From Paraspadella gotoi (lineage: Eukaryota; Animalia; Chaetognatha): DNA of 64,000 nucleotides. Made by a program: the position numbers and the translations under genes. This document shows, piece by piece, positions 1 through 33,197 of the stretch (its first letter is position 1; every line of letters starts with the position of its first letter). The stretch covers positions 15,974,105 through 16,038,104 of the forward strand of contig CM119267.1 of the NCBI GenBank assembly GCA_051294375.1, read 5' to 3'. A model generated the notes under the pieces. It did not search any database and was not told where the DNA came from. It saw only the letters and a program-made list of their open reading frames with translations.

Positions 1-3000
1 GGAATGTTTTCTCCGACTGGAGGAGACGCTTTCGTCCGCAACAAAAGTATTCTCACCGATATGGCGGACATTCGTCGCGAAATGGGAATCTGCCCGCAAC
101 ACGACGTCCTGTTTGACGACCTGACCGTCCGCGAACACCTCATATTTTTTGGCCGACTTAAGAATTGTTCTCCCGACGTTTTGGACTCTGAGATTGACTC
201 GCTGTTAGGAGATCTACTCCTTGAGCCTAAAAAATTCGAATTGGCTAAAACATTGTCGGGCGGGCAAAAGAGAAAACTCTCGGTGGCAATCGCTTTAATC
301 GGGCAGTCAAAGGTTGGACGCTAAAACTGCATTCCTATTTGGTTTCTGTTACAAGTATGTATTTTTATTTATAATTATTTGTATCAAGGTGGTTCTACTC
401 GACGAACCGACGAGCGGTATGGACCCTTCCGCGCGTCGATTGACTTGGAATGTTTTGAAGAAGTACAACGCGGGTCGAACGATGCTATTGACTACTCATT
501 TTATGGACGAAGCCGACGTTTTGGGTCACGTGATAGCCATCATGGCTTCCGGAAAAGTCGTTTGCACTGGAAGTCCACTCTTTCTCAAAACAAAATTAGG
601 TATTTTTCAGATGAACGTCTATATTTTTGTTATTAAAAAAAATATAATCCTGAATTACATTCTTATATTCTAGTGAAATTTTATAATTTCTGACTTTCTC
701 GAAGTCGGTTTGATACAATCCTATTACAATGTACATACTTAATCCAATAAACTAATAAAAATAAATTTTAAACAGGCGCTGGCTATCATTTGGTGATTGT
801 GAAAGCTTCCAAATATGATCACCGATCCACTGACACCCTGGTCAAAACTCACGTTCCTGAAGCTGTCGTGGAGCGAAACATTCTGGCTGAAGTTGCCTTC
901 GTTCTTCCCAAGGAGCGCGTCCACTGCTTTTCAGATCTTTTTAGGTCTCTTGAGTTCAGCAAGGCCGATCTGGGTATCTCAAGCTTTGGGTGCGCCGTTA
1001 CTTCTATCGAAGAGGTTTTCCTTCGAGTTGGCGATGATGAAACTGCCATGTCGAAACTGATGTCTGCCGCTGAGTCTGCCGACCAATCTACCGTAGAACA
1101 AGAATTCGCTGCCGACCCGACACAAGCTTCAAATGTGAACGAAAAGAGCCCCGTAGAAGAAAATGGCGAGGTCGATCGCAACAAAGGGTTTACGCTTGCC
1201 TGTCAACAGTTTTACGCGATGCTCGTAAAACGAATGCTGCATACTTGGCGGAATCGACTGGTCACCGTGTCGCAGCTCCTTGTGCCCAACCTTTTTACTC
1301 TGCTCATCCTCTTCATCATCCAAATCTCCCCAGACATGAAAGATTCGCCGCCGTTAAACTTGAATCTTCGAGGTTTTGGGCCAACTCTTTCTCCGGTCTT
1401 GTCTAAACCTGGGAGTTTGATGACGAATCACTTGACGCAAACTTATCAAAGTTATTTTGATGATAATAAAGACGAAGTGGTTGATGTTAGAGGAATAAAC
1501 GTACCAGCCTTCCAAAATCTAAGCGATATCGACCAGTTCGCACTAAAATTCTCAACGAAAAGTTTACGAAAATATACGGATGAGATCTTAATAGGGGCTC
1601 ATTTCGGCAGTATCGACGAGTCTTGCTTCCGAGGTGTCGGTCGCTCAGTTTCTGATTATTTGCAAACGATGGCTGCCGAATCTACGGAGAAGGAAAGGAA
1701 GCAGCTCAACGATGCCATCGTACAAAGATTTAAAGGGTCGCGGTTCTCATCCGCCTATGGCGGATTGGTGTGTCAGACTTACGCTAAAGAAATCGAATTG
1801 GAAGCCAACAGAACGAATATTTCCCTCGAAGAATTGCACGATACTAAGGGGGGTCAGCATTTTGTGGAAGGATATTTTAACGACAATCCCTTTCATACGC
1901 CGGCCATTTCTTTACACGCCTTATCTCACGCCATGATGCGAACTGTTTCCAACGTCTCCCTGTATTCCTACAACCATCCTCTGCCACGCACAGTCAACGA
2001 TAAGCTCGACGACACTCTCACGTTAAATTTTCGTTTTTCCGGATCCTTCAATTTCGGTTTTTTGTATGGAATGTCTTTTCTCGGAGCCTCTTTCATCGTG
2101 TTTTTGATCAAAGAAAGAGTTTCCAAATCTAAACACATTCAAATCTTATCCGGCGTTCATTACTTCAATTTTTGGTTAGCTACCTTCGTTTGGGACTACG
2201 TCAACTTTCTCGTTCCTTGCTTCATTACAGTCCTTTTGTTCTACCCTTTCCAAATCGAAGCCTTTATCAACTCGGGAATACACAACTCCATTATCCTAAT
2301 GCTCTGCTTTGGTCTCGGTCAGCTTCCTTTCATTTATTGCATCTCTTTGCTTTTCCAAGAGTCGACGGCCGGTTTTGTTTACACGTCCGTTCTCAACATC
2401 TTCGTCGGTCTCTTCCTCATGATCGCCATCGGAATCCTCAAGGCCTTCGACCTGGACGAACTCGCCGATTCCATCCAGAGCATCGCGCTTCTCATCTCGC
2501 CGCCCTTCGTCATCGGCAACGCCATGCAGAATCTCTACGTCAATTATTGGAACTTTCGCATGTGCGAGCTCGACCTGCCAACCACGAGAGATCTTTTTAA
2601 GTCTTTCATACCGGCCGACGCGCTCCAGAGCTCCGGCATGAATTGGTTCGGTCCACTCGACGAAGACGAGCTGCTTGACTGGTTCGAAGACGAGAAGATC
2701 TTTGAAAAAAGCTCCGGCATTAATCTGACACTGGGCGAGATTCTGGCCAAACCGGCCAAAGAGGCGTTGTGCCTCATCGTTGAGCAGGCCAACGTGTCTT
2801 ATCCTTGTTGCCCAAACAGCGATTGCGAGGACACAATCGTCGGTTGCGCTGTCCACGTACCTTACCTCAGTTTGGAATTTCCCGGTGTAGGACGTCACCT
2901 TCTATATTTTTTCGCTCATTTCGTCATCTTCTTCTTAATTCTCTTCGTTTATGAATCTGAAATTCTGAGGGCGCCTTTCTACGCACTCTGTGCCCGTTGG

Positions 3001-4340
3001 CGGTTTTTTCGTTCCCGATTCGGTCAAAAGTCGCGCTCTTCTTTGGTCAAAGCCGGGGCTGACGTGGAAATGGCGGAGGGGTTCGTCAACGGGGTGCCCG
3101 ATGGCGAGGAAGACGCCGATGTCGAGGCGGAGCGGCGGAAAATAAGAGAGTTCCGGAACAAAATGCGAAAAGAGAAAACTAACGAAGTGCCTTTGCTGAT
3201 GTTGGACGAACTGAAAAAGATTTACACTTCGAGCCAAGTCACCGCCGTCGATGGCATCTCAGTCGGAATCCCTCGCGGGGAATTATTCGGATTATTGGGA
3301 CTGAACGGGGCAGGTGGGCGAATCGTTTTTTGTTTTTTTTTGTATAAAATTGTTAGCCTTGTCAGTTTTAAATATGCAAATTGCAATATTTTTAGGTAAG
3401 ACGACAACATTCAAGATGTTAACTGGCGACGAGACAGTGACCGAAGGCAACGCCATCCTGTCCGGAGTCTTTGACGTCCGCTCGAACCTGCGCCAAATGC
3501 AACAGCGTATGGGCTATTGCCCTCAGTCCGATGCGCTAATCGACCAGATGACGGGAAGGGAGACTTTGCGAATGTACGCTCGACTTCGCGGCATTTTCGA
3601 GTCTCGCATCGAAGCCATGATAGAAGAGGTCACCAAAGATTTGCTTCTTGACGATCACATCGACAGGTTGGTCGGAGGTTACAGCGGCGGCAACAAAAGA
3701 AAACTCAGCACCGCGATAGCCCTCATTGGTGATCCCCAGTTGGTGAGTCGAATTTCATCACCTGATGATGGATTTTTTTATTGTATGTAATTTCTTTCTT
3801 CAGGTCTTGCTCGATGAACCGACGACCGGCATGGATCCCGTGGCTCGACGACTTCTCTGGGACGCCCTCATTCGCATACGGGACAAGTCGCGTCAAAGCA
3901 TCGTCCTCACTTCCCATTCCATGGAAGAGTGCGACACTCTCTGCACGCGATTGGCCATCATGGTCAACGGACGGTTCACCTGCCTCGGATCCCCGCAGTA
4001 TTTAAAGGGAAAATTCGGCGAAGGATTTCATCTCGTCGTGCGGCTTCGCATTGACGACGACGACGACGACGAGAGCGGCGAGCGAGCTTACGAAGAAGCG
4101 GCGAGGTTTGTCCGCTCCCAATTTCCGGATGCGCGGTTGGAAGATTTTACGTCGACGGCGAGAGGCTCGTTAGTGTGTCAGATCCCGGAAACGGCCACGC
4201 TTTCATGGTCAGAGGTTTTTCGAGTCATGGAGACGGCGAAGGAAGAGCTTTGCGTCGACGATTACTCTTTGTCTCAGACTACTTTGGAAAAGGTGTTTCT
4301 CAATTTTGCCAAGAGTCAGCGATCTGAGGATGGGAACTGA
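1..4340 (+). CDS. ABCA3-like: ABC transporter subfamily A (ABCA3-like), 5'-truncated; exons <1-312, 389-599, 776-3313, 3396-3742, 3804-4340
   Basis: NBD1 ([42 protein letters not shown]), regulatory segment ([17 protein letters not shown]), TMD2 ([12 protein letters not shown]) and NBD2 (GLNGAG|[46 protein letters not shown]). Four GT-AG introns join the ORF pieces in frame. Confidence 0.95.
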
Positions 4341-4930
4341 TGGAGCGAATTTACCACCTGAAATTACCTTTTTTTATTCTCTCTCTTTTGTTTGAATGAT
4401 CTGATAGAGAATATCAATATGGTTGAAACAATCAAATCTGATTCTATTCCTTATTTTTTCATTTGTAACCAAAACCCAAGGCTCAAATTTTTTTGCGAAG
4501 TTTTATTTATTTTTGGGTTGCTTATTTAATTTTATCATTTTATTACTTATTTGATGCAACTCAAAAAAATATTTTGTCTCTTCGTAAATTCTGGCCTTTT
4601 TACCTTTAATATTTTCGTGATTTCTGTTGTTGCTTATTCTTAATCCAGTGATAATGGTTTTTTGACCATAATAACTAAGTTTTGGTATGCTGCATGCAGC
4701 ATCGTACAGCATTTTACATTAGAACTAATTGCGCTATAATTGTCGTTTTCACGTTGACACCTGATATTTTTTTTTCCGGGATGGGTAGTTATATTTATTA
4801 ACCTTGTTACAAATCGCATGTATACTGGTCAGTCGTTTATTAATTTATTTTAATAGTAGTATAATTATAAGTTAATTACAACTCCTGATTTATTTTTTGG
4901 CTCAACTTCTCGTCTTGCTATTTTCAGAAA

Positions 4931-6019
4931 ATGGCGACTCCCGAGGCGCTCTGGCGTCTAATGGAACAATTGAAAAACATGGAACATGCGTTGACGGAAA
5001 TTCTCATGGAATCTTTGCTGAAAATCGCTTCCGTGACTTCGACGACCGTTTTTCTCTTGGTGGAGGAGAGCGTTGGCGGCGTTCGACGCATTGCCGCTTC
5101 TCCTCGTTTCGCCGACGCCTTCAAGAACGGCGTCCTGGTCCCAACCGGGGAAGAGGTGGAGATCTCGCTCGTTCAGGACGGCGGATCTGTTTCTGTGGTG
5201 CACAATCCGTTCGTCGTTGAACCGGAGTCGTCTTTGGTTGCAAACCCCGCTCTTTCCCGGCGCCGAGGCCAAAAACGTATTTTTGACGTGTTGGGGGGCG
5301 AAAGTAGCGGCCGTTCGAAGCATTTCAAGCGGACCGCCAAGCCAAGCTCCGCTCCAACTACTTCGTCGTCTTCGTTGGATGTAGTCGTCTTGAAAAGCGA
5401 AGTGGAGGACATAGTTGAGTCGGAATCTTCACGAGACGTCCTCTCCGTTCAGCCAGTGGACACGAACAGCTTGACCAAACCCGAGGTTGACGACGACTCC
5501 CCTGTATATCTTCCAACCTCGATCCCCGCTATTCCTCTTTTCGCTTCGGACGTCGACGGCTTTGTCCCCGAGCGTTCAAACCCCGATCGTAACGGTTTTC
5601 CGGATGCCTGGCATCCCCCGGAGCTGTCGGCTAAGACAACACCGGAACTCTATGGATTTGATGTTGAGAAATATTTGCTCGAGAACGAGAAGTACCGGAC
5701 AGTTGCCAACATCAAGGACATCGCCATCATGGAAAAATCGCACACGTACAATAAGCTCCTCACGTCTTTCTTGTACGACATATCCAAAATGGTGGTTTTA
5801 CACAGCCCGTTTCGCGAAAATAAAAACAAACAAAACGCCGAGTATTTTAATAAAGTTTTCGAAATAGTTTGGGAGCATTTTCCTTATTTAAACGAGCTCA
5901 ATGAAATGCGTTTGAAATTTAATGGAAAGAGTCCAAGATATTTTGTCAGGCACACTATGCAAGCTTATTGCATCGTTCTCATGTCTAAGTGTGTCGCCCA
6001 GACGAAAGATATGGGCTAG
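4931..6019 (+). CDS. Uncharacterised family paralogue 1 (MADS-like N-terminal module + conserved helical C-terminal domain), 362 aa, intronless CDS
   Basis: Long ORF clearly homologous at both ends to ORFs 9603 and 10955 (LKIASVTSTTVFLLVE; TSFLYDISK...RYFVRHTMQ). Has a basic patch RRRGQKR and a SUMO-like motif LKSE. Confidence 0.85.
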   Translation: MATPEALWRLMEQLKNMEHALTEILMESLLKIASVTSTTVFLLVEESVGGVRRIAASPRFADAFKNGVLVPTGEEVEISLVQDGGSVSVVHNPFVVEPESSLVANPALSRRRGQKRIFDVLGGESSGRSKHFKRTAKPSSAPTTSSSSLDVVVLKSEVEDIVESESSRDVLSVQPVDTNSLTKPEVDDDSPVYLPTSIPAIPLFASDVDGFVPERSNPDRNGFPDAWHPPELSAKTTPELYGFDVEKYLLENEKYRTVANIKDIAIMEKSHTYNKLLTSFLYDISKMVVLHSPFRENKNKQNAEYFNKVFEIVWEHFPYLNELNEMRLKFNGKSPRYFVRHTMQAYCIVLMSKCVAQTKDMG

Positions 6020-6350
6020 CGAGACTCAGTTTTATACGGAATTACGGATTGATTTGTCATAAGTAGACACACCATTTGGAATAAGAGCCTATTTAAAAAA
6101 TTAACAAAGAGTACCACTACTTTAGTTTTTCTTAGTCATTTCTTACTAGATCGTTTAAAAACGAAAAGATTGTTTTTCCAAATCTATCCTAAATTTATAA
6201 TTAACATTTTCTCTGTATTAATATATGAAACGAATATTAACGGCGCCATTGCTTGAAAGTGGTGTTTTTTTCCGATAGATTTTTAAATGGCAAGGCTTTG
6301 CCATTTTAGCCTATGAAAAGACAGTAATTAATGATAAATGTTAGTGACAG

Positions 6351-6550
6351 AACCGTTCAATATAAGCAGTCCCTGAGCTTTGGATCAGGCTGTAACACCA
6401 TGTTACAGGCGGGTTAACCGCCCCGTCCCTCTTAACTGCTAGGCGACCACCGGGCTAGAACCCCGGACCTTTGGGTTGGGAGGCGAATGACTTGCCTCCG
6501 GCACCAATGGCCGCTGATGAACGGTTGGTGGATTTTAGTCCACCATAGCT
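6351..6550. mobile_element. Short non-autonomous element containing a tRNA-like segment (tRNA-derived SINE or Helentron/HINE-like)
   Basis: Inverted 9-mers AACCGTTCA (6351) and TGAACGGTT (6518), a terminal hairpin TGGTGGA-ttttag-TCCACCA (6526-6545), internal hairpins, and GC-rich sequence within an AT-rich spacer. Confidence 0.5.
6442..6514 (-). pseudogene. tRNA-Gly(CCC)-like pseudo-tRNA / SINE head
   Basis: Acceptor stem GCGGCCA/TGGTCGC, T-arm CCGGG-GTTCTAG-CCCGG (B-box-like) and anticodon loop CTCCCAA. The anticodon stem has two mismatches and the D-arm is poor, so it is unlikely to be a functional tRNA. Confidence 0.55.
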
Positions 6551-6720
6551 ACATATCGAGTGAGAAGTTTACAATTTTATATGAACGACTTTTTTTACTT
6601 AGTTCACATATCTTACGAGACATTTAATAGTTGTCATTGCAATCTGGTCATATAAAAATCGATTTTTACTATGTTTTTATAGTCACCCAGTCAGTTGTCC
6701 GGAAGCCCTAGGCATCATCA

Positions 6721-8395
6721 ATGGCGGCAATGGTTCCACAGTGGAAGTCCCTCGACGTTCCCCTGATCGAAGCCATGTCGGAATTGGTTCTTCGGCTTTC
6801 TCCTCTTTGTTCCACTACACAAACTCTCCTGTTGATCGAGGTACTGCGATCTTTTAGCCAACCGATTGTTTTCGACGTCGTCCACAATGTATACAATTGC
6901 CGCGGTGAGATTTTTGCATTTAAAAAAAAAATTTTAGGGACCCCACGGACGTCGGGCCTTCGGATCTGAATCACTAATTGATAAATATTATCACGGAGCC
7001 TTAATCCCTTCGAATAAAGAGCGAAAAATCTATGTTGACGAAACCAAATCGGGGAACAGAGTCGGGCCACTTTCTTCGAACGATCTCGATTCGTTATTCT
7101 CTAAAAAACCAGAGGGACAGGAAAAGAGGAACCATGCTACATTGGCTTATCCACCCCCCAAAATTCAAAGAAATCGACTGTTGGTTAATGGCGTCGAAAA
7201 GGAACATGACAACTGCGTTGGGAACGATACAAGGTTCCCTCCGTATATTCCTCGAGTTGGAGTGACCAATTGCCGTCCTGCTTCTTCTTCTTCTCAAAAT
7301 TCTCCGACTAAGAAAAAAAATGTGCCAAAAGGAAAATCATCTCAAACAAGCTGTCATTGGCATTTGCCAAGGACGCAGCGTGCCCTTAGAACACCAACAG
7401 ATTTTGAAAAGTTGAAACAAAGTCCTGTTATTTCTACCCATGTAAGCCCTTCGCCAGCAGCCTCCAAACGGGGATCGGACAACGCCGCGGACGACCGTTT
7501 GGAACCGAAACGGCGTCTGCTCGAGATGCATCTTCTACCCGATTTGAACGAACCGAGGGAAGAAGCCGTGTCCCTCCCTGAAATGCCCAAAGATATCAAT
7601 CAAGAAAAAGACATATTAACTGCCTTAGCCATATTGCCGTCACATCCATTGTCTAACGCCCCTTCTTCCAATCCTCCATCTTCCAATCCATCGTCAAGGC
7701 TTCAATGCTACAGGTATTAAGTACAAATTAGGTCAGTGATCCATCGGTTCGGTAACTAACGTAAAATTCAGACGTATGCTTTGCGTTATTATAAATTAAT
7801 TAATAAATTAATAATAAATTAATAATTAAATTAATTAATCGTTGCTACCACTCCAGTATTTTATGTAAACAGGGACGAGCCAGCCGTTGATGTAAAATTG
7901 GAACCAGCCGAAGACGACCAGAACGAAGATCCGAATACTGAGACTGAACAATCGCCTGTTCTCCCCAAGACAGAGACCTCGGATGTGACGTTCGAAGGTC
8001 ATTTCGATTTCCCCAGCCTGTCATCCTTCCTCGACGACTCCGCCGAGTTTCTGAACGAATCCCTTTATTCTCAAGGAGAAGCTTCGGAAGAAGCGACGAA
8101 CCTGTTGTGCCCTCAACCGAGTCTTCCTTTCATCGGCAGCGAAACGTTGCTCAAGCCTTTGCTTCTGTTCGGATGGACTCGTGAGATCGTCTTTCGCTCC
8201 AGCGGAAAAAGCAGCGACACGTACTACTGGTCGCCGAGTGGAAAGAAATATCGATCCATGCGCGAAGTGGAGGATTATTTGACTAAAACAAACAACAAAG
8301 ATTTATCTGTCGACAATTTCATATTTTTAGCCGGGCTCGTTGGGGGCGGTGAAAGAGAAAAGACTAGGGTGTGTCGTCCTAAGGTTTCATCATAA
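6721..8395 (+). CDS. Family paralogue 2: MADS-like N-terminal module + C-terminal methyl-CpG-binding domain (MBD); exons 6721-6840, 6938-7713, 7873-8395
   Basis: GT-AG introns at 6841-6937 (phase 0) and 7714-7872 (phase 2) give one open frame. The spliced N-terminus ELVLRLSPLCSTTQTLLLIE|GPHGRRAFGSESLIDKYYHGAL matches the paralogues. The C-terminus PLLLFGWTREIVFRSSGKSSDTYYWSPSGKKYRSMREVEDYL...DNFIF is an MBD. Confidence 0.85.
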
Positions 8396-9602
8396 ATTAA
8401 TTCGATTCAAACAATAAAAAAACTATTTTGGACCAATTCGTACGAGTCAGTTAATTTTATTGTCAAATATATTTTTAAATGTGATGGATAGCTTATTTAT
8501 TAAATGAATGGATATTGGATAATTTTTATATTGGTTGTACCAATTTCATATAAATACTTCTAAAAAAGGTTGTTTCTAACTGTTTTTACTTTTTTTAATC
8601 AAGAGGATTAATACTATTATTATTATTAATATTATATTTTTAACATAATATTTTTTATTAGAAAATTAGAAATGAGAAAATTATACAATGTCTAGTTTTG
8701 AGGAAAAAAAAAGGTCCTTGGCAAGCAGTGAAAAAGATTGATCCACTATAAAGTAAACAAGGTTAGTTATTGTTTCATAATATGATGATGAATTGTTTTT
8801 TACTAATTAAAAAATTATAAATAAAAATGATAATTTTGTTCATAAAAATGTTACCCGGAGCTTTATAACTTTTATTAATATTTTACAATATAAAAAGAAT
8901 ATTCTGGATTATTTACAGCATTAATATATTTTTAATACCGCTTTAATTTTGACATATGAATTAAGATTTATCCCTAAATCTTTCTTAATGGAGATAATAC
9001 AATAACCATTTAACATGAGATTAAGAAAAGAGATTTTTAATAATAATGGTTTAACTCAAAAAGTAATAAAAAAGAACCGGAAATTAATAAAATTATAAAG
9101 TGTAAATATAAAAAAGATAAAAAAGAAGCATTTTTAGGACAACTCATTTTCTTTTGCATAGAACTTTGGTATTTTTTGTTGTACATAAATGAGATACAGC
9201 TCATATGAATCACAAAAGGCTAAAGTTTTAAAGTGTTAAATTTTATTTTTTATTCATACATTAAAATGCCTAAAAATAGCTGGAAATTTACCGCGACAAT
9301 TTTTTTTCATCATGGTAAAACTGAATAAGTAATTAGAAATTACAACCAAGCTGGTTTCAAGATGATATTGATTGCAATTTCGGTTCGCCCCTAATTCTGT
9401 TTGAAATTTTTGTATAATTAACAAATTCTAATTAAATTAAATTATTGTAAGTATTCTGTGGTTCAAAGGTTATTTTTTTCCTCTTTAATGTTGCTCAATA
9501 CGAACTGTTTCATGAGAAATTTTAGCAAAAATTTTCGACGAATTACATTTCTAATTATTCTTAATTGTTAATTTTTTTGTTAGCTTTAAGTTTAGTATCA
9601 CC

Positions 9603-10646
9603 ATGGCAACGGCGGAAAACGTATTCAACTTGGCCGAGCAGCTTCAGCACTTCGAGACTTCCCTGACGAACATCATGTTCGAAGTTTCTCTCAAACTCTC
9701 CTCCCTCACGAACAGTCGAGTCTTTCTCCTTGTCGACAATGGTGTCTGCCGGAAATTGGCAGGAGATTCTAACTTGTGTCAAGCCTATTCTACGGTAGGC
9801 CTTAAGTCGGCTGGCAACGACTTTCGCGTGGAACTCGAACAACCTTTCAATGGATTAAAACAATCCGCGTCGCCGTCCTGTCTGCCGCCTCCTCCGCCGA
9901 CGTCTATGCACTTTGCTTATGACACGCCTAACGACGTCGGTGCCGCCCTCGCAGAATCCGGAGCTTCGATCGCCCACAAGCGAAGTCACGAAAATATCCG
10001 TGACGCGCCACCGACGATACCGAAGCGTCAACGTCTTTCGCTGTCCTCTTTGAACGTTGATTTTCATCCATCCAATCCGGATCCGATCGTGGACGGAAGG
10101 GGGGGCGAGGACGACGACGTCATCATCGAGGAAAACGAAACTAAGATGGAGTCGTTGCAGATTCGTCCCTTTTTCGACGCTGATCTGATGGAGCGCTCCT
10201 TCGACCAGACTGTTAAAAACCACCACGGCGACCTGGCCGTGACTATCGCCTCCGACGACGTCAACGCTTATTTGCTTGAGAATTCCAAAGTGGCCGCCTT
10301 TCGCCAGATGTCTCTGGACGTCAACGACTCGGAACTCGACGTCGCCTCTCCCGTCTTCAAGATCATGACGTCCGTCCTTTACGACGTTTCAAAAACTGCA
10401 GCGTTGACGGCGCCCGCGCGAGACAAGCGTCACCCTAACGCCAGGGCACACTTCGAAGCTACCTTCGAGAGAATCCTTCTCGAATTTCCACACATTCAGA
10501 CTCTCAACGACAGGGGGATCAAGGTCAAGGGAATGAGACTGAGAAACTTTGTAAGAAACACGATGCAAAAGACTTATGGGAAATTGTTAGACAAAAGTCT
10601 CGCCAATCGCCTCGTGGAAACGAATTTGCTTGAGACCATATCTTGA
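9603..10646 (+). CDS. Uncharacterised family paralogue 3, 347 aa, intronless CDS
   Basis: Good Kozak context ACCATGG. N-terminal IMFEVSLKLSSLTNSRVFLLVDN, NLS-like PKRQR, C-terminal TSVLYDVSK...RNFVRNTMQKTYGKLLDK. Confidence 0.87.
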   Translation: MATAENVFNLAEQLQHFETSLTNIMFEVSLKLSSLTNSRVFLLVDNGVCRKLAGDSNLCQAYSTVGLKSAGNDFRVELEQPFNGLKQSASPSCLPPPPPTSMHFAYDTPNDVGAALAESGASIAHKRSHENIRDAPPTIPKRQRLSLSSLNVDFHPSNPDPIVDGRGGEDDDVIIEENETKMESLQIRPFFDADLMERSFDQTVKNHHGDLAVTIASDDVNAYLLENSKVAAFRQMSLDVNDSELDVASPVFKIMTSVLYDVSKTAALTAPARDKRHPNARAHFEATFERILLEFPHIQTLNDRGIKVKGMRLRNFVRNTMQKTYGKLLDKSLANRLVETNLLETIS

Positions 10647-10954
10647 ATCTTAACTAAATTCTTATTTAACGAGTTATAATTTCAATAATTATAGTTGATG
10701 TATACCGAGTATGTGCTTTTGTTTTTTAAATTATTAGTTTTAAATTGGGTATTTATTAACTTAGGGATTTGTTCTTGATTTTCATAATAAAAAAATGTCT
10801 CAGACAATTCGTCATTGGTTTGAAAATTAGTTCATAGTTAACAATCCGTTTGCCTGGGTTATCTTTAAATTTTCAAGTTTATACCCTTGTATCCGCATCG
10901 CTCATATCATAATTTAAATTGATGTTCGTATTGTTGTAGCCTTCCTCGCTTAAC

Positions 10955-12088
10955 ATGGACGCCTCAAACACTCTGGTGGGTTTGATTACCCAGATGCAGC
11001 AACTCGAGAATTCCATTGCCTCCATCGTGTTCGAATTGGTCCTCAAACTGTCCTCCTTGACCGACGCCAACATGTTTCTATTGGTAGAGAATGCAGAGGG
11101 TCGCAGGTTCGCGGGAAAACAGCAGATGTGCGACGCTTATCTCCAGGGAGCGCTAATGTCGTTGGGTGGGGAGACAGAAGTGACGCTAAGTCCCGTGGCG
11201 CAGTCGTTGTGCTTCCGCCGCGTCGACAACGTTGACCGCGGCGCCGATAGCGTTCTCCACAGGACCGCCAGATCTGTCGGCGTAAATGAACGCGCTCCTT
11301 CGACCTCCTCTTCGTTTCAACCCCGCGGTGGCAGCGCGATCCTCGGCGAGACCTTCCATCCCCATGTCACCGACTCTTTCCACGTTGGCAACAATTCTTT
11401 TGCTAGAAAACGAAACTTTGTGGAGGAAAACTCGTTCGATTTTCCTCAGACAAAGCAGCAGAAGACTTCGTTGATGAACGATGGTGTTACGATCTCTGAG
11501 CGGCCAGAAGACCTTTCTAAAGTCGAGATCCCTAAGCGGGAGGTCGACGAAGACGGAGACGTCGTGGTGGAGGACGGCATCGGAGCCTCCGAGCGAGATC
11601 TGGCAGTCGTCTGCCTCCCATCCGCCAACGACTCCCTCGAGTCTGTCTCCTTCAACGACGAGGCTCGACCCGACCCAGTGTCTTTCGCCCACGGGGTGGA
11701 GGAGTTGGACCAGTACTTCGCCGTCAGCGACAAGGTGCTCGCCGTCAAGTCCATACCTCTGGAGAAGTTCAAGGCGCTCGACTCTCAGTCACAATCGTTC
11801 GAGTACAAGTTGTTTACCTCCACCCTCTACGACATATCTAAGCTGGCCGCCAAATGCTCCCCGTCGTACGACAAAAAGAACCCCACCTCGAAAGCCCATT
11901 TTCACAACGTCTTCGAACGAGTCTGGAGCGAGTTCTCTTTCCTCGAACTCTTGGCCCAATTGGGCGTTCAGCCCAAAAACGGCTTCAGCATGCGAAACTT
12001 TGTCAGGGCGACTATGCAGAAGACTTACGGACACATATTAGACAAGTTGCTCTCCAACAGCATCAAATCGAGAGAGAGCGTTATGTAA
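10955..12088 (+). CDS. Uncharacterised family paralogue 4, 377 aa, intronless CDS
   Basis: N-terminal IVFELVLKLSSLTDANMFLLVENAEGRRFAG, basic patch RKR, C-terminal TSTLYDISK...RNFVRATMQKTYGHILDK. Confidence 0.87.
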   Translation: MDASNTLVGLITQMQQLENSIASIVFELVLKLSSLTDANMFLLVENAEGRRFAGKQQMCDAYLQGALMSLGGETEVTLSPVAQSLCFRRVDNVDRGADSVLHRTARSVGVNERAPSTSSSFQPRGGSAILGETFHPHVTDSFHVGNNSFARKRNFVEENSFDFPQTKQQKTSLMNDGVTISERPEDLSKVEIPKREVDEDGDVVVEDGIGASERDLAVVCLPSANDSLESVSFNDEARPDPVSFAHGVEELDQYFAVSDKVLAVKSIPLEKFKALDSQSQSFEYKLFTSTLYDISKLAAKCSPSYDKKNPTSKAHFHNVFERVWSEFSFLELLAQLGVQPKNGFSMRNFVRATMQKTYGHILDKLLSNSIKSRESVM

Positions 12089-12410
12089 ACGATAATCAAT
12101 GACGTCGGAATTCGATTTAATTTCTTTTGTCATATTGTCGGTTTTTTGTTTTTTTGGTTTTTTTTTGTAAAAATTGATTCCATTCGCCGATTTTTTAAAT
12201 TTTTTTTATCGAGAACCTTATTTCTTCTTTTCATCGCATCTGTTACTGTTATAAATTAGCATATTCTATTCTTTGGTTGGATTGCCAAAGCAATCTACGA
12301 ATTCGAGATTATCAATAACCCAGATTCCAAAAAGCCCATGTTACAATTTCATTTCTGTTTCACTGTATCGAATAATAATAATAATTCTTTTGTTAAGTGT
12401 TTTTTAAAAT

Positions 12411-13007
12411 ATGACTTCAAGACTCCTCCCTGGCGTTTTGGCCCCGTTTGTACATGCCACCGTGAGGGGCCGGTTCGTCGGTCTTCCTGTGCCAAGTCGG
12501 AGATTTTCTCGCTCTCTCCCATTATTCGTTGAATCCTCTCCGAATCTTCCGCCAGAGCCATCTTTCTACTCTCTCCTCCGAAACTCGAATTTCGTCAAAA
12601 TCGGCAATCTCCGTCAATGCCCGAAGACGGTCCGCGCCAGGATCGTTCACGTCATCGACGACGATCTCTACCTCGACTTTGGCGGAAAATTTAAAGCCGT
12701 GTGCCGGCGCCCTCGATCCAAAGCCGCTCGATATGTCCACGGAGCGGAGGTGACGGTGGCGCTGCACGACTTGGAAATGACGTCGCGATTTCTTGGCGCA
12801 GTACGAGACACGACGCTTCTCGAAGCCGACGCGACCATTCTCGGTTTAGCCGACGTTCCAACTGTCGAGAAGGAGGCGGAGACGGTGGACTTGACGGCCA
12901 CGTTGTCCTACTCGGGTTTGGAGGATCTGTTCGAAGCTGAAAACGAAAATGTGGTCGAAACCGAACATCAAACTTTGGACGGAGTCGATTCGCAAAATGA
13001 AAAATAA
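12411..13007 (+). CDS. MRPS28: Mitochondrial ribosomal protein S28 (bS1m)
   Basis: Arg-rich presequence followed by SFYSLLRNSNFVKIG...IVHVIDDDLYLDFGGKFKAVCRRP...DLEMTSRFLGAVRDTTLLEADA, the characteristic MRPS28 motifs. Confidence 0.93.
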   Translation: MTSRLLPGVLAPFVHATVRGRFVGLPVPSRRFSRSLPLFVESSPNLPPEPSFYSLLRNSNFVKIGNLRQCPKTVRARIVHVIDDDLYLDFGGKFKAVCRRPRSKAARYVHGAEVTVALHDLEMTSRFLGAVRDTTLLEADATILGLADVPTVEKEAETVDLTATLSYSGLEDLFEAENENVVETEHQTLDGVDSQNEK

Positions 13008-13044
13008 TTCGATATGAGTCTTATGAAATTGGTGTTCGAAGTTA

Positions 13045-13075
13045 TTTATGTTTATTTCTCCTTTTTTTTTCGTAG
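13045..13075 (+). promoter_or_regulatory. Strong 3' splice acceptor (candidate trans-splice site) upstream of NATD1
   Basis: TTTATTTCTCCTTTTTTTTTCGTAG ends 12 nt before the ATG, inside an 80-nt spacer with no strong GT donor. Confidence 0.6.
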
Positions 13076-13087
13076 ACTTTCACGATA

Positions 13088-13477
13088 ATGACATTTAACT
13101 TTTTGGGCAAATCAGCTTCAAAATGTAGCCTCAATTATCGAGCCTTTATCCCTCGAATGGCGCTCAATCGATTCTGCGACGCTTCCAACGTGAAAGTCAT
13201 CCACGACGCCGACGCTGAAGAATTCTACATTCCTTCCGACGAAGATGAGACCGTCAGGGCTTTTCTGAAGTACGAATTCGTGGACAAGGATCACATTTGC
13301 ATGCACCATACTGAAGTCCCAGAAGAATTTCGAGGCCGGGGCATCGCCAAGCAGCTCGCCATCGCCGCCTTTGACTTCGCCGTCGAGGAAAATCTCTCCG
13401 TAACACCCACCTGCTCGTACGTTCTCAAGTTCGTCACGGAAACTGAGAATCAGGACTACAAAAACAGAATCGTGTGA
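13088..13477 (+). CDS. NATD1: NATD1-like GNAT acetyltransferase (Acetyltransf_CG)
   Basis: MHHTEVPEEFRGRGIAKQLA...PTCSYV motif, with a presequence-like N-terminus. Confidence 0.88.
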   Translation: MTFNFLGKSASKCSLNYRAFIPRMALNRFCDASNVKVIHDADAEEFYIPSDEDETVRAFLKYEFVDKDHICMHHTEVPEEFRGRGIAKQLAIAAFDFAVEENLSVTPTCSYVLKFVTETENQDYKNRIV

Positions 13478-13501
13478 AAAAGGCACAATTTTAAAGGCAC
13501 G

Positions 13502-14515
13502 ATGGCCATGAATTTTTTTCAACTGGGCATGTCTATTTTTTGGGGAATCATCGTGACTTTTTACATTCTTTACAAATTCCTTCGTCATCCCGTAAAATCT
13601 TGGCGCACAGTCCGACGCGGGGCGCCCCCTGTCGACCTTCAAGACTCTGTTTTCGGGGTTCATCGTCACGCCTTTCTCCCGGAGCGGGGCCTGACGCTGC
13701 ATTACGTGGAAAAGGGTCCCGCGGACGCCGACGTACTCCTCTTCGTTCACGGCTTCCCCGAATTTTGGTATTCGTGGCGCCACCAGATTCTCGAGTTCTC
13801 GCGTCAGTTTCGCGTCGTAGCCGTCGACATGCGCGGCTATGGTGACTCCGACAAGCCGGAAGGGATCGCCGCCTATGCCGTCGACCATCTCGTGGAGGAC
13901 ATTCGGAGCCTGATCCTTCATCTCGGCGCGAAGAAGACACATCTGATCTCTCACGATTGGGGCGGCGCCGTCGCCTGGAATCTAACATCTCGCTATCCAC
14001 ACCTCGTCGACAGATTTATCGTGTGCAACTGTCCCATTCCCGGCGTCGCCGCGAAATTTATAAGGGAAAACCTGGGACAGCTTTGGATGTCGTGGTACAT
14101 GTTCTTCTTTCAAATCCCGTTCTTGCCCGAAATTTTGTTCCATTTGTGCGATTACGAAATTTTTGAAATGGGCTTTTGGCAATATCCATCCATGGGGTTC
14201 AAACAACCGGAGGCGTTTACTTCGAAAGACATGGAAACGTGGAAATACGTATTCGCCAAACACGGATTGACCGGCCCAATTAATTATTACCGAGCGGCGA
14301 TGCGGGTCCCAAAAATCAAATTCGAACCTTTTTCCAATAAATCTTTAATCATTTGGGGGAGTGAAGATGGGTTTTTGCACAAAGAATTGGCCCAAAGGTC
14401 AGCAACAAAAATTCCAAATGCAACTCTTAAATTTGTTGACGGCGCTTCTCATTGGGTGCAGCAAGATAATCCTACTGAGGTGAACAGAATTATTTGGGAA
14501 TTTTTAGAAAATTAA
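13502..14515 (+). CDS. EPHX4-like: Epoxide hydrolase 3/4-like alpha/beta hydrolase
   Basis: N-terminal membrane anchor, HGFPEFWYSWRHQ, DMRGYGDSDKP, nucleophile motif SHDWGG, SWYMFFFQ, GPINYYRA and catalytic His in ASHWVQQD. Confidence 0.93.
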   Translation: MAMNFFQLGMSIFWGIIVTFYILYKFLRHPVKSWRTVRRGAPPVDLQDSVFGVHRHAFLPERGLTLHYVEKGPADADVLLFVHGFPEFWYSWRHQILEFSRQFRVVAVDMRGYGDSDKPEGIAAYAVDHLVEDIRSLILHLGAKKTHLISHDWGGAVAWNLTSRYPHLVDRFIVCNCPIPGVAAKFIRENLGQLWMSWYMFFFQIPFLPEILFHLCDYEIFEMGFWQYPSMGFKQPEAFTSKDMETWKYVFAKHGLTGPINYYRAAMRVPKIKFEPFSNKSLIIWGSEDGFLHKELAQRSATKIPNATLKFVDGASHWVQQDNPTEVNRIIWEFLEN

Positions 14516-24925: not shown

Positions 24926-24984
24926 ACTCATACACGCATTTGTTTGTTTTATTTACGATGAATGATTCAGCGCGTCAATGAATC

Positions 24985-25190
24985 ACTATCATCGCATCAA
25001 TGAATGACTATCATCGTATCAATGAATGATTATCATCATATCAATGAATGACTATCATCGCATCAATCATTTGATTATCATCAAATCAGTCATTTTGTTA
25101 TCATCGCATCAATTATTGGTTATCATCGCGTCAATATTTGGTTATCATCGCATCAATATTTGGTATCATCGCATCAATATTTGGTTACTA
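24985..25190. repeat. Minisatellite with a ~21-bp unit (TATCATCGCATCAATGAATGA)
   Basis: About 9 visibly degenerating tandem units. Confidence 0.8.
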
Positions 25191-31861: not shown

Positions 31862-33197
31862 TCAGTGGTTATGATGGTAAATGCTGTGGAAGGCCGTGCC
31901 TATGATCGGCGCCCTCCTCTCCAGCAGCGGTTGCGGAGAGTTGGCCGTGATGTAGCTGATGGGGCCGGGACTGGTGGTGCTGATGGCTCTGGGGCCGGGC
32001 GAGGTGGAGGGACCCATGAGGGCGTGGTGGAGAGTGGGCGAGGTGACGGTGGGCAACGCGGGCGACGTCTCGCTCCTGTTCATGGAGTTGGCGAGGCTGA
32101 CGAGGGCGGCCGTCTGGGCGGCGGCGGTGTTCATGGCGTTATGGTGCGTGATGAGCGGCGAGGCCGCGTGCGCGTAGTCCGTGTAGAGCGCGTTCACTTG
32201 GTTCATGATGTTCCGGTCGGCGGCGGCGGCCTGCTGCGCCTGCTGCAGCAACTGAATTTGCTGCTGCGCCGAGGCGGCGGTGGCGGCGGTGGCGGGAATG
32301 ATGCCCGCCAAGCCCGGGATCCCGGTCGCGTAGGGGAGGTAAGCGGCGTTGGCGGCGGCGGCGGCGTAGGGCGCCCCGGTGGAGCCGGCCCCTCCTCCGC
32401 CGCCCGTCTGATACTGATTGGCGGCGCCGAGGGCGGCGGCGGCGGCGAAGGCACCCGGGTACCCGATCAGCAGATCCCCGTAGACCCCGTTGGGCCGAGC
32501 CAGCACGCCCGAGAGTCCCGACTTGGCCAGGTTGGCCGACAGCATGACCTCCTTGGGCTGGGCCTTCTTGCACTCCACCATCTTCCCGTTGATCTCGTGG
32601 AAGTGGATGTCGCAGACCCTCTCGACGGCCTCTTCCTGCTCGAAGGTGACGAAGCCGAACCCGCGGTGTCGCTGCGTCGTCTTGTCCACCATCAGCATCG
32701 AGTCTTCGATGGCGCCGAATTTGCCGAAGTAGGCGTTGATGTCGTCGACGGTCGTGGCGGCGGAGAGACCGCCCACGAAGATCTTCTTCGTCTTGGTCAC
32801 CATCTTCGGGGTGGCGCGACGCGGGAACGCCACCTTCGGGTCGATGTTCTTTCCGTCGAGCTCGTGGTGCGCCTGCGCGGTGACCTTGTCCACGGCGAGC
32901 GGGTCTTTGAAGGTGACGAAACCGAAGCCGCGACTTCGTTTCGTGTTGGGATCCTTCATGACCATCGTCTCTTTGATCTCGCCGAAGAGGATGAAGTAGT
33001 CGCGAGAGATTCGGGAGTCGTTTGCCAAGGAGAGGTGCCGCCTTATTGAAGGGGGGGAGAAGGGGGGTGGGGTAAGATTTACACATTCTCTCTCTCTCTT
33101 TATGTCCATTCATTCATTCTCACAGTCGGCTTTCCGGTATTTCTCTGTGTTAGGGATCTGAAATCTCTGTCTCTCTCTCTTCTATCTCTCTCCTCTC

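Follow-up and report, generated by a model that had tools for sequence, protein, structure and literature searches.

A spliced arrow-worm gene joins a predicted MADS-fold head to an MBD that keeps the methyl-CpG recognition residues

MeCP2 contacts methylated CpG through R111, D121, Y123 and R133. The BTB-zinc-finger readers of methyl-CpG (Kaiso/ZBTB33, ZBTB4 and ZBTB38) are built as an N-terminal pairing module, a linker and an exchangeable DNA reader, as are the fly proteins lola and mod(mdg4). Among MBDs, four rows of Table S3 in PMC6673714 (de Mendoza, Pflueger and Lister 2019), from a beetle, a water flea, an annelid and a centipede, combine BAZ-like flanks with all four recognition residues; one of these is labelled MBD_Fbox and the other three lie adjacent to it, and the same study places MBD-Fbox with BAZ2 and SETDB as outgroup. 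That paper is the only one in the literature searched to use the name MBD-Fbox. The affinity of MBD2 drops 30-fold and 8-fold when either arginine is changed to lysine (PMC8600091), and the divergent MBDs captured by the centipede CopiaMBDs, which carry these residues, bound methylated DNA (PMC6673714). BAZ2A with both arginines restored, on the other hand, gains no mCG specificity, because extra strands tilt its sheet (PMC8600091).

In the arrow worm Paraspadella gotoi, transposons are reported to be methylated and genes unmethylated, and the accompanying search for a methylation toolkit covered DNMT1, DNMT3A, TET1 and UHRF1 (PMC12460157). The main text of that paper (in which the string occurs only inside ‘lambda’) and three of its supplements make no mention of an MBD, and the literature searched yielded nothing on chaetognath MADS proteins. 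Here we describe a gene from a window of this genome (the whole stretch of DNA analysed, 64,000 nucleotides, to which all positions refer) that places an MBD behind a head of predicted MADS fold. A first-pass annotation, made from the letters alone, had proposed that three separate open reading frames are one gene, and indeed introns at 6841-6937 and 7714-7872 give a single frame, 6721-8395, that encodes 472 aa and has its sole stop at the end (exons 6721-6840, 6938-7713 and 7873-8395). The gene is confirmed as real. The account that we favour, tentatively, is a spliced fusion gene whose MBD, likely derived from the MBD-Fbox class, would bind CpG DNA, probably methylated repeats, and whose head would pair with other members of its family. 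Its parts are as follows.

6521-6720, plus strand: 5' transcribed part (UTR or outron), from the start of an X1 contig at 6521
6721-6840, plus strand: coding exon 1 (aa 1-40), which carries the opening half of the head of predicted MADS fold
6841-6937, plus strand: intron 1, GT-AG, 97 nt, phase 0, within the head, GC 0.37, absent from the X1 contig
6938-7713, plus strand: exon 2, with the rest of the head (up to about aa 76, 7045) followed by a basic linker rich in Pro and Ser
7714-7872, plus strand: intron 2, GT-AG, 159 nt, phase 2, GC 0.26, donor placed by the contig
7873-8395, plus strand: coding exon 3, with an acidic stretch followed by the MBD, a short extension at the C terminus and the stop
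8156-8329, plus strand: MBD, aa 394-451, from Pfam PF01429, PDB alignments, a model and fold searches
8195, 8216, 8222, 8252 and 8264, plus strand: MBD residues R407, D414, Y416, R426 and E430, from alignment
8396-8516, plus strand: inferred 3' UTR, from the remaining 643 nt of the contig, with ATTAAA at 8499-8504

The MBD matches PF01429 at E 2.2e-15 (56.5 bits against a cut-off of 21) and is the only domain that Pfam finds in the 472 aa. No DDT, PHD, bromo or SET domain lies beside it; the linker of exon 2 belongs to no Pfam family, and no F-box was matched in the frames of the three exons (E up to 1), nor in P0078, a second protein of the same family that ends in an MBD. Between linker and MBD lies the acidic stretch (aa 300-392), with 23 D/E against 2 K/R. 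As the first-pass annotation had claimed, the residues that recognize mCpG are present: R407, D414, Y416 and R426 align to those of MBD2, as does E430. Its likening of the flanks to BAZ2/SETDB1-type MBDs holds for the flank motifs and the best fold matches, but by eye the invertebrate MBD-Fbox class fits better. Counted by hand with the loop excluded, identities to the four MBD-Fbox-type rows are 28/51, 27/52, 26/53 and 25/53, against hand counts of 23/53 and 24/53 for BAZ2, 22/49 and 20/49 for MBD2/3, 19/53 for MeCP2 and 19/52 for SETDB (rows of PMC6673714). The margin in these hand counts is small, and from sequence comparison we consider derivation from the MBD-Fbox class probable.

The claim that the architecture is new fared better for the whole protein than for its MBD. 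No description of a head joined to an MBD was found in the literature searched, which takes in few subscription journals, and the architecture, of which P0078 is a second case, appears undescribed; the mixture of such flanks with the R/D/Y/R set is already present in the MBD-Fbox rows.

Whether the domain prefers methylated CpG we regard as evenly poised on its sequence features. Both MBD2-type arginines are kept in both fusions of head and MBD. Conservation of residues alone does not establish a methyl preference, because the loop between R407 and D414 has only 6 residues compared with 9 in MBD1-4 and MeCP2, because the Tribolium row of Table S3 has all four recognition residues (PMC6673714) in an animal reported to be without CpG methylation (PMC6220294) or to have mostly non-CpG methylation (PMC5737696), and because of the arginine result in BAZ2A. 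This raises the possibility of the same fusion with an MBD that is blind to methylation, like the TAM domains of BAZ2 and SETDB, binding the backbone of DNA or RNA, or a protein, and acting as a general chromatin adaptor. In its favour, a model of the domain, built from 2 sequences at pLDDT 65, has BAZ2B/BAZ2A TAM as its best Foldseek match, and VIA-align returns BAZ2A, SETDB2 and MBD4 at Z 5.5-6.5, effectively tied. The branching of MBD-Fbox with BAZ2 and SETDB and the short loop, which invertebrate SETDB rows of Table S3 share (PMC6673714), point the same way, as do the outcome of the K-to-R change in BAZ2A (PMC8600091) and the Tribolium row. We nevertheless think a methylation-blind MBD doubtful: both fusions keep all four residues at 40% identity, whereas the tyrosine occurs in 0/10 BAZ2 rows and the Asp and Tyr together in 0/7 of the SETDB rows seen in Table S3 (PMC6673714). 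Moreover, of the two extra strands that give TAM its five-stranded sheet, the low-confidence two-sequence model has a single one, at pLDDT <60, and the protein terminates about 20 residues past the MBD. In favour of methylated repeats as the target, methylation in P. gotoi is reported on transposons and not on genes (PMC12460157), and the genes of the window are not CpG-depleted (CpG o/e 1.12-1.49 in 8/8 coding stretches).

The N-terminal part of the protein belongs to a family that is represented three more times in the window.

4931-6019, plus strand: sibling A, free of introns, a head followed by the unnamed C-terminal domain; covered by a 1440-nt X1 contig whose start lies directly behind an AG
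9603-10646, plus strand: sibling B, free of introns, a head followed by the unnamed C-terminal domain; head clade includes P0078
10955-12088, plus strand: sibling C, free of introns, a head followed by the unnamed C-terminal domain; head used for folding

That the gene is a hidden paralogue of these neighbours, as first supposed, is borne out by its spliced head, which reaches 40.5 bits on a family profile from which the window proteins were excluded (exon 1 alone, 14.5 bits; intron read-through, 12.2; best of 2000 shuffles, 6.9), compared with 104, 87 and 68 bits for the heads of the siblings. By BLAST the spliced N-terminus is 31% identical to sibling C over 71 aa (E 4e-7), with no significant match to siblings A and B. 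The sibling C head matches 235 clusters of an unnamed family at E up to 0.001, the best 150 of which were used; the head profile was drawn from 149 relatives, with six set aside (a repeat protein matched by chance, two proteins with double heads and three with no head). Fourteen relatives carry no annotation beyond ‘hypothetical protein’, and all six window proteins looked for were absent from the protein collection searched. Two relatives, P0007 and P0082, have two heads in tandem, a repeated basic motif and Gly/Tyr-rich ends.

A MADS-like fold, which the first-pass annotation had also suggested, is supported for the family head as a prediction from sibling C. AlphaFold models the sibling C head at pLDDT 91 on a 35-row alignment as a long helix, a hairpin, a helix and two strands, and a structural search of 48,161 chains ranks SRF (Z 7.0), MEF2D (6.1), SEP3 (5.8), MEF2A (5.8) and NRF1 (5.6) ahead of a next match at 4.7. 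The top four are all MADS proteins (rmsd 2.6-3.1, 56-75 residues aligned), and MEF2 and SRF occupy the top rows in Foldseek as well, at E 0.18 or worse. These Z values are moderate, a Z below 8 can reflect a common arrangement, and as the fold was modelled for the sibling C head, the MADS assignment reaches the MBD gene by homology. At the level of sequence, the two fold methods, which agree on MADS, are joined by a faint trace to SEP3 in one relative; Pfam SRF-TF matches 0/3 sibling heads and, below its cut-off, 1/149 listed relatives, profile searches of the PDB with the head and with the whole family returned nothing meaningful, and an Atlas search with the head gave no usable match.

The head lacks what would make it a MADS box. 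Its alignment to SRF begins at residue 150, and over their first 35 columns the heads average 1.6 K/R and a net charge of -1.1. Two lysines of the SEP3 helix align to E and to G/A in the family heads; we take these lysines to be DNA contacts. Without the basic arm and helix of MADS proteins, the head is thus not a MADS box but a putative pairing module, and the models suggest, as a prediction, the DNA-blind pairing half of a MADS domain. The description of these proteins as sequence-specific factors accordingly needs correction: the head is not itself sequence-specific, since a net positive charge, as a basic DNA-binding helix would confer, is found in only 4/141 heads, and the unnamed C-terminal domain of the siblings has no known function by Pfam and PDB profile searches.

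Among the 141 heads, that of the MBD gene is the most degenerate, with the lowest profile score and the longest branch. Of 20 conserved positions it retains 10, and 3 prolines fall within helix columns 12-35, where 135/141 heads have none. Such a head could be a decaying remnant that no longer pairs, leaving a near stand-alone MBD protein that reads CpG by itself. Most of the changes, however, swap like for like (E to D, K to R, F to L, D to E), E27, R50 and G54, all nearly invariant, are retained across an intron, and the head of P0078 is intact, so that we hold a defunct head to be distinctly unlikely.

The joining of head and MBD in one transcript rests on the contigs of run X1, which we tentatively take to be RNA. 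A 1740-nt contig covers 6521-6838 and 6936-7714 and omits 97 nt with GT..AG ends, which is exactly intron 1. The same contig departs from the genome at 7714 with 643 nt remaining, as fits a next exon that starts with G, and an acceptor at 7873 would place its end at 8516, 12 nt past the ATTAAA. There are 51 AG/G sites up to 16000, 18 of them YAG, and 6 of these open at least 40 codons; the one at 7873 is the sole such acceptor before 10445. X1 also contains 0.82 of 194 sampled words from 6600-8450, where splicing of both introns would predict 0.827, retention of intron 2 would predict 0.93 and absence of exon 3 would predict 0.526. Intron 2 is thus well supported, because contig break, leftover length and word share agree, while we infer the junction itself. 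For the junction reads that had been proposed as a check, the contig thus gives intron 1 exactly and, for intron 2, indirect but mutually consistent signals. That exon 3 is a separate MBD gene and the fusion an annotation artefact, a reading left open by the inferred junction and the presumed nature of X1, is hardly credible given the break at 7714 with its 643-nt remainder, the poly(A) signal at the predicted end, the agreement of 0.82 with 0.827, the single suitable acceptor and the identical architecture of P0078. The 5' transcribed part also contains a pyrimidine-rich AG near 6682, possibly an acceptor for trans-splicing.

P0078 couples its intact head to an MBD with the same four recognition residues, 40% identical to that of the window gene. 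With two such proteins in the family, the joining of head and MBD is more than an isolated case. Exon 3 and the P0078 tail are 33% identical over 150 columns, the loop between first Arg and Asp in P0078 has 12 residues, and the likeness upstream of the MBD is marginal (94/5000 shuffles reach it; P0078 ranks 2nd of 118). The P0078 head groups with strong support (100/96) with that of sibling B, the gene that the MBD gene adjoins on its upstream side, and its linker resembles those of sibling-B-type relatives such as P0099, which has the usual tail. More generally, within this group (P0078, P0099, P0093, P0075) a sibling-B-type head and linker can be followed either by an MBD or by the usual tail, and pairs of the P0078/P0099 type might reflect a choice between last exons at a single locus. 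The two MBD-bearing heads are 23% identical to each other, and none of three placements of the window head, beside P0078, in the sibling B clade or in the sibling C clade, is rejected (p-AU 0.53, 0.63 and 0.69, respectively). The head is not placed by these trees, so that a single origin of both fusions is no more than possible. A simple history would have a sibling-B-type gene acquire an MBD last exon, with the window copy then diverging fast.

Searches beyond the family added little. A word-index search for a longer relative of exon 3 gave 0/571 candidates, and one with the P0078 MBD returned only P0078 itself (1/19 candidates); an Atlas search with the tail found generic MBD clusters. Three of 140 candidates (L001-L003) in a metagenome scan with MBD patterns were rejected as chance off-frame matches in bacterial DNA, the contigs in question carrying, by eye, an AlpA-like gene and a methyltransferase-HNH-like frame.

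Family tails vary. The unnamed C-terminal domain, which forms the last 110-140 codons of each sibling, occurs in 80/167 proteins scanned, siblings A-C included, and has no Pfam or PDB sequence match; it is absent from the MBD gene, where the MBD stands in its place. Above cut-off, the 149 listed relatives include one with a homeodomain tail and one with a CENP-B/Tc5 HTH; below it there are one FLYWCH and two faint BED-finger matches. P0078 is the one listed relative with an MBD, and an RFX-like tail suspected in P0153 had no Pfam match. A profile scan of the window found no further head or tail copies beyond the four genes, which argues against a lola-like array of tails there.

The four genes sit in a same-strand row of an ABCA transporter, sibling A, the MBD gene, siblings B and C, a mitochondrial ribosomal protein matching Pfam MRP-S35, a GNAT protein and an alpha/beta hydrolase, with gaps of 590, 701, 1207, 308, 322, 83 and 24 nt between the frames. 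These eight genes (772-14515), several of which have a pyrimidine-rich AG immediately ahead of their ATG, have an operon-like appearance. Their close same-strand spacing, the sibling A contig that begins behind an AG and the lack of CpG depletion in genes suit an arrow worm, but would also suit other animals that have operons. Between sibling A and the MBD gene lies a very high-copy short repeat (6340-6547), with a summed X1 contig depth of up to about 80,000, in which contigs of both genes end or start; it is SINE-like by eye, 208 nt long, with CpG o/e 0.70 and one copy in the window. Rfam and tRNA searches matched nothing in the window, this repeat included. Elsewhere, a minus-strand frame of 415 codons at 31865-33109, in a gene-poor, microsatellite-rich region, has two RRM stretches with no intron inside, and is presumably Musashi-like. 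At 24967-25178 a 22-bp unit is repeated in tandem about 10 times.

Returning to the fusion that we favour, we propose that an MBD has replaced the usual tail in one gene of a lineage-specific family whose heads are predicted to have the MADS fold. The MBD would likely dock the protein on CpG DNA, probably at methylated repeats, and the head would pair with family members; as the head of this gene is eroding, the pairing may be weak or narrowed. By analogy with Kaiso-type and lola-type factors, the head would be a BTB-like, DNA-blind pairing module with swappable DNA-reading tails, a scheme to which the DNA-binding tails elsewhere in the family (homeodomain, CENP-B/Tc5 HTH) lend support. The protein would thus likely bring a lineage-specific regulator family to CpG DNA, possibly to methylated transposons. 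A bolder version, which we consider unlikely as a whole, has a true methyl-CpG reader finding methylated transposons and linked by its MADS-derived head to dimerising factors with homeodomain, CENP-B and FLYWCH tails; such a reader would have arrived at the Kaiso/BTB logic independently, starting from a MADS scaffold. The fusion provides a concrete candidate for a methylation reader in arrow worms, to stand beside the writers and erasers (DNMT1, DNMT3, TET, UHRF1) treated in PMC12460157. It also provides the MBD-Fbox class with a candidate on which binding could first be tested, and represents a predicted reuse of the MADS scaffold as a DNA-blind pairing module.

Set against known systems, the gene resembles the MBD-Fbox family in its BAZ-like flanks and four recognition residues (rows of PMC6673714), but Pfam finds no F-box in it, its head is of predicted MADS fold and its loop is shorter. 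With the BAZ2A/BAZ2B TAM and SETDB MBDs it shares flank motifs and its best fold matches; those domains lack the Asp/Tyr pair and reside within large remodeller or methyltransferase proteins, whereas the window gene has none of the accompanying domains. The predicted head, a long helix, beta-hairpin, helix and strand, is like that of SRF, MEF2 and SEP3 (PDB 1k6o, 7x1n, 1egw, 7nb0) and NRF1 (8k4l), yet in contrast to MADS-box factors the family head has no N-terminal basic arm and its helix is on average negatively charged (-1.1). As in the CopiaMBD retrotransposons of centipede and spiders (PMC6673714), an MBD has been captured into a new context, but the host here is a cellular spliced gene whose exons have no Pfam transposon domain. 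The BTB-zinc-finger readers have the same layout, although the folds are unrelated: a MADS-like head stands in the place of BTB, and an MBD in the place of zinc fingers.
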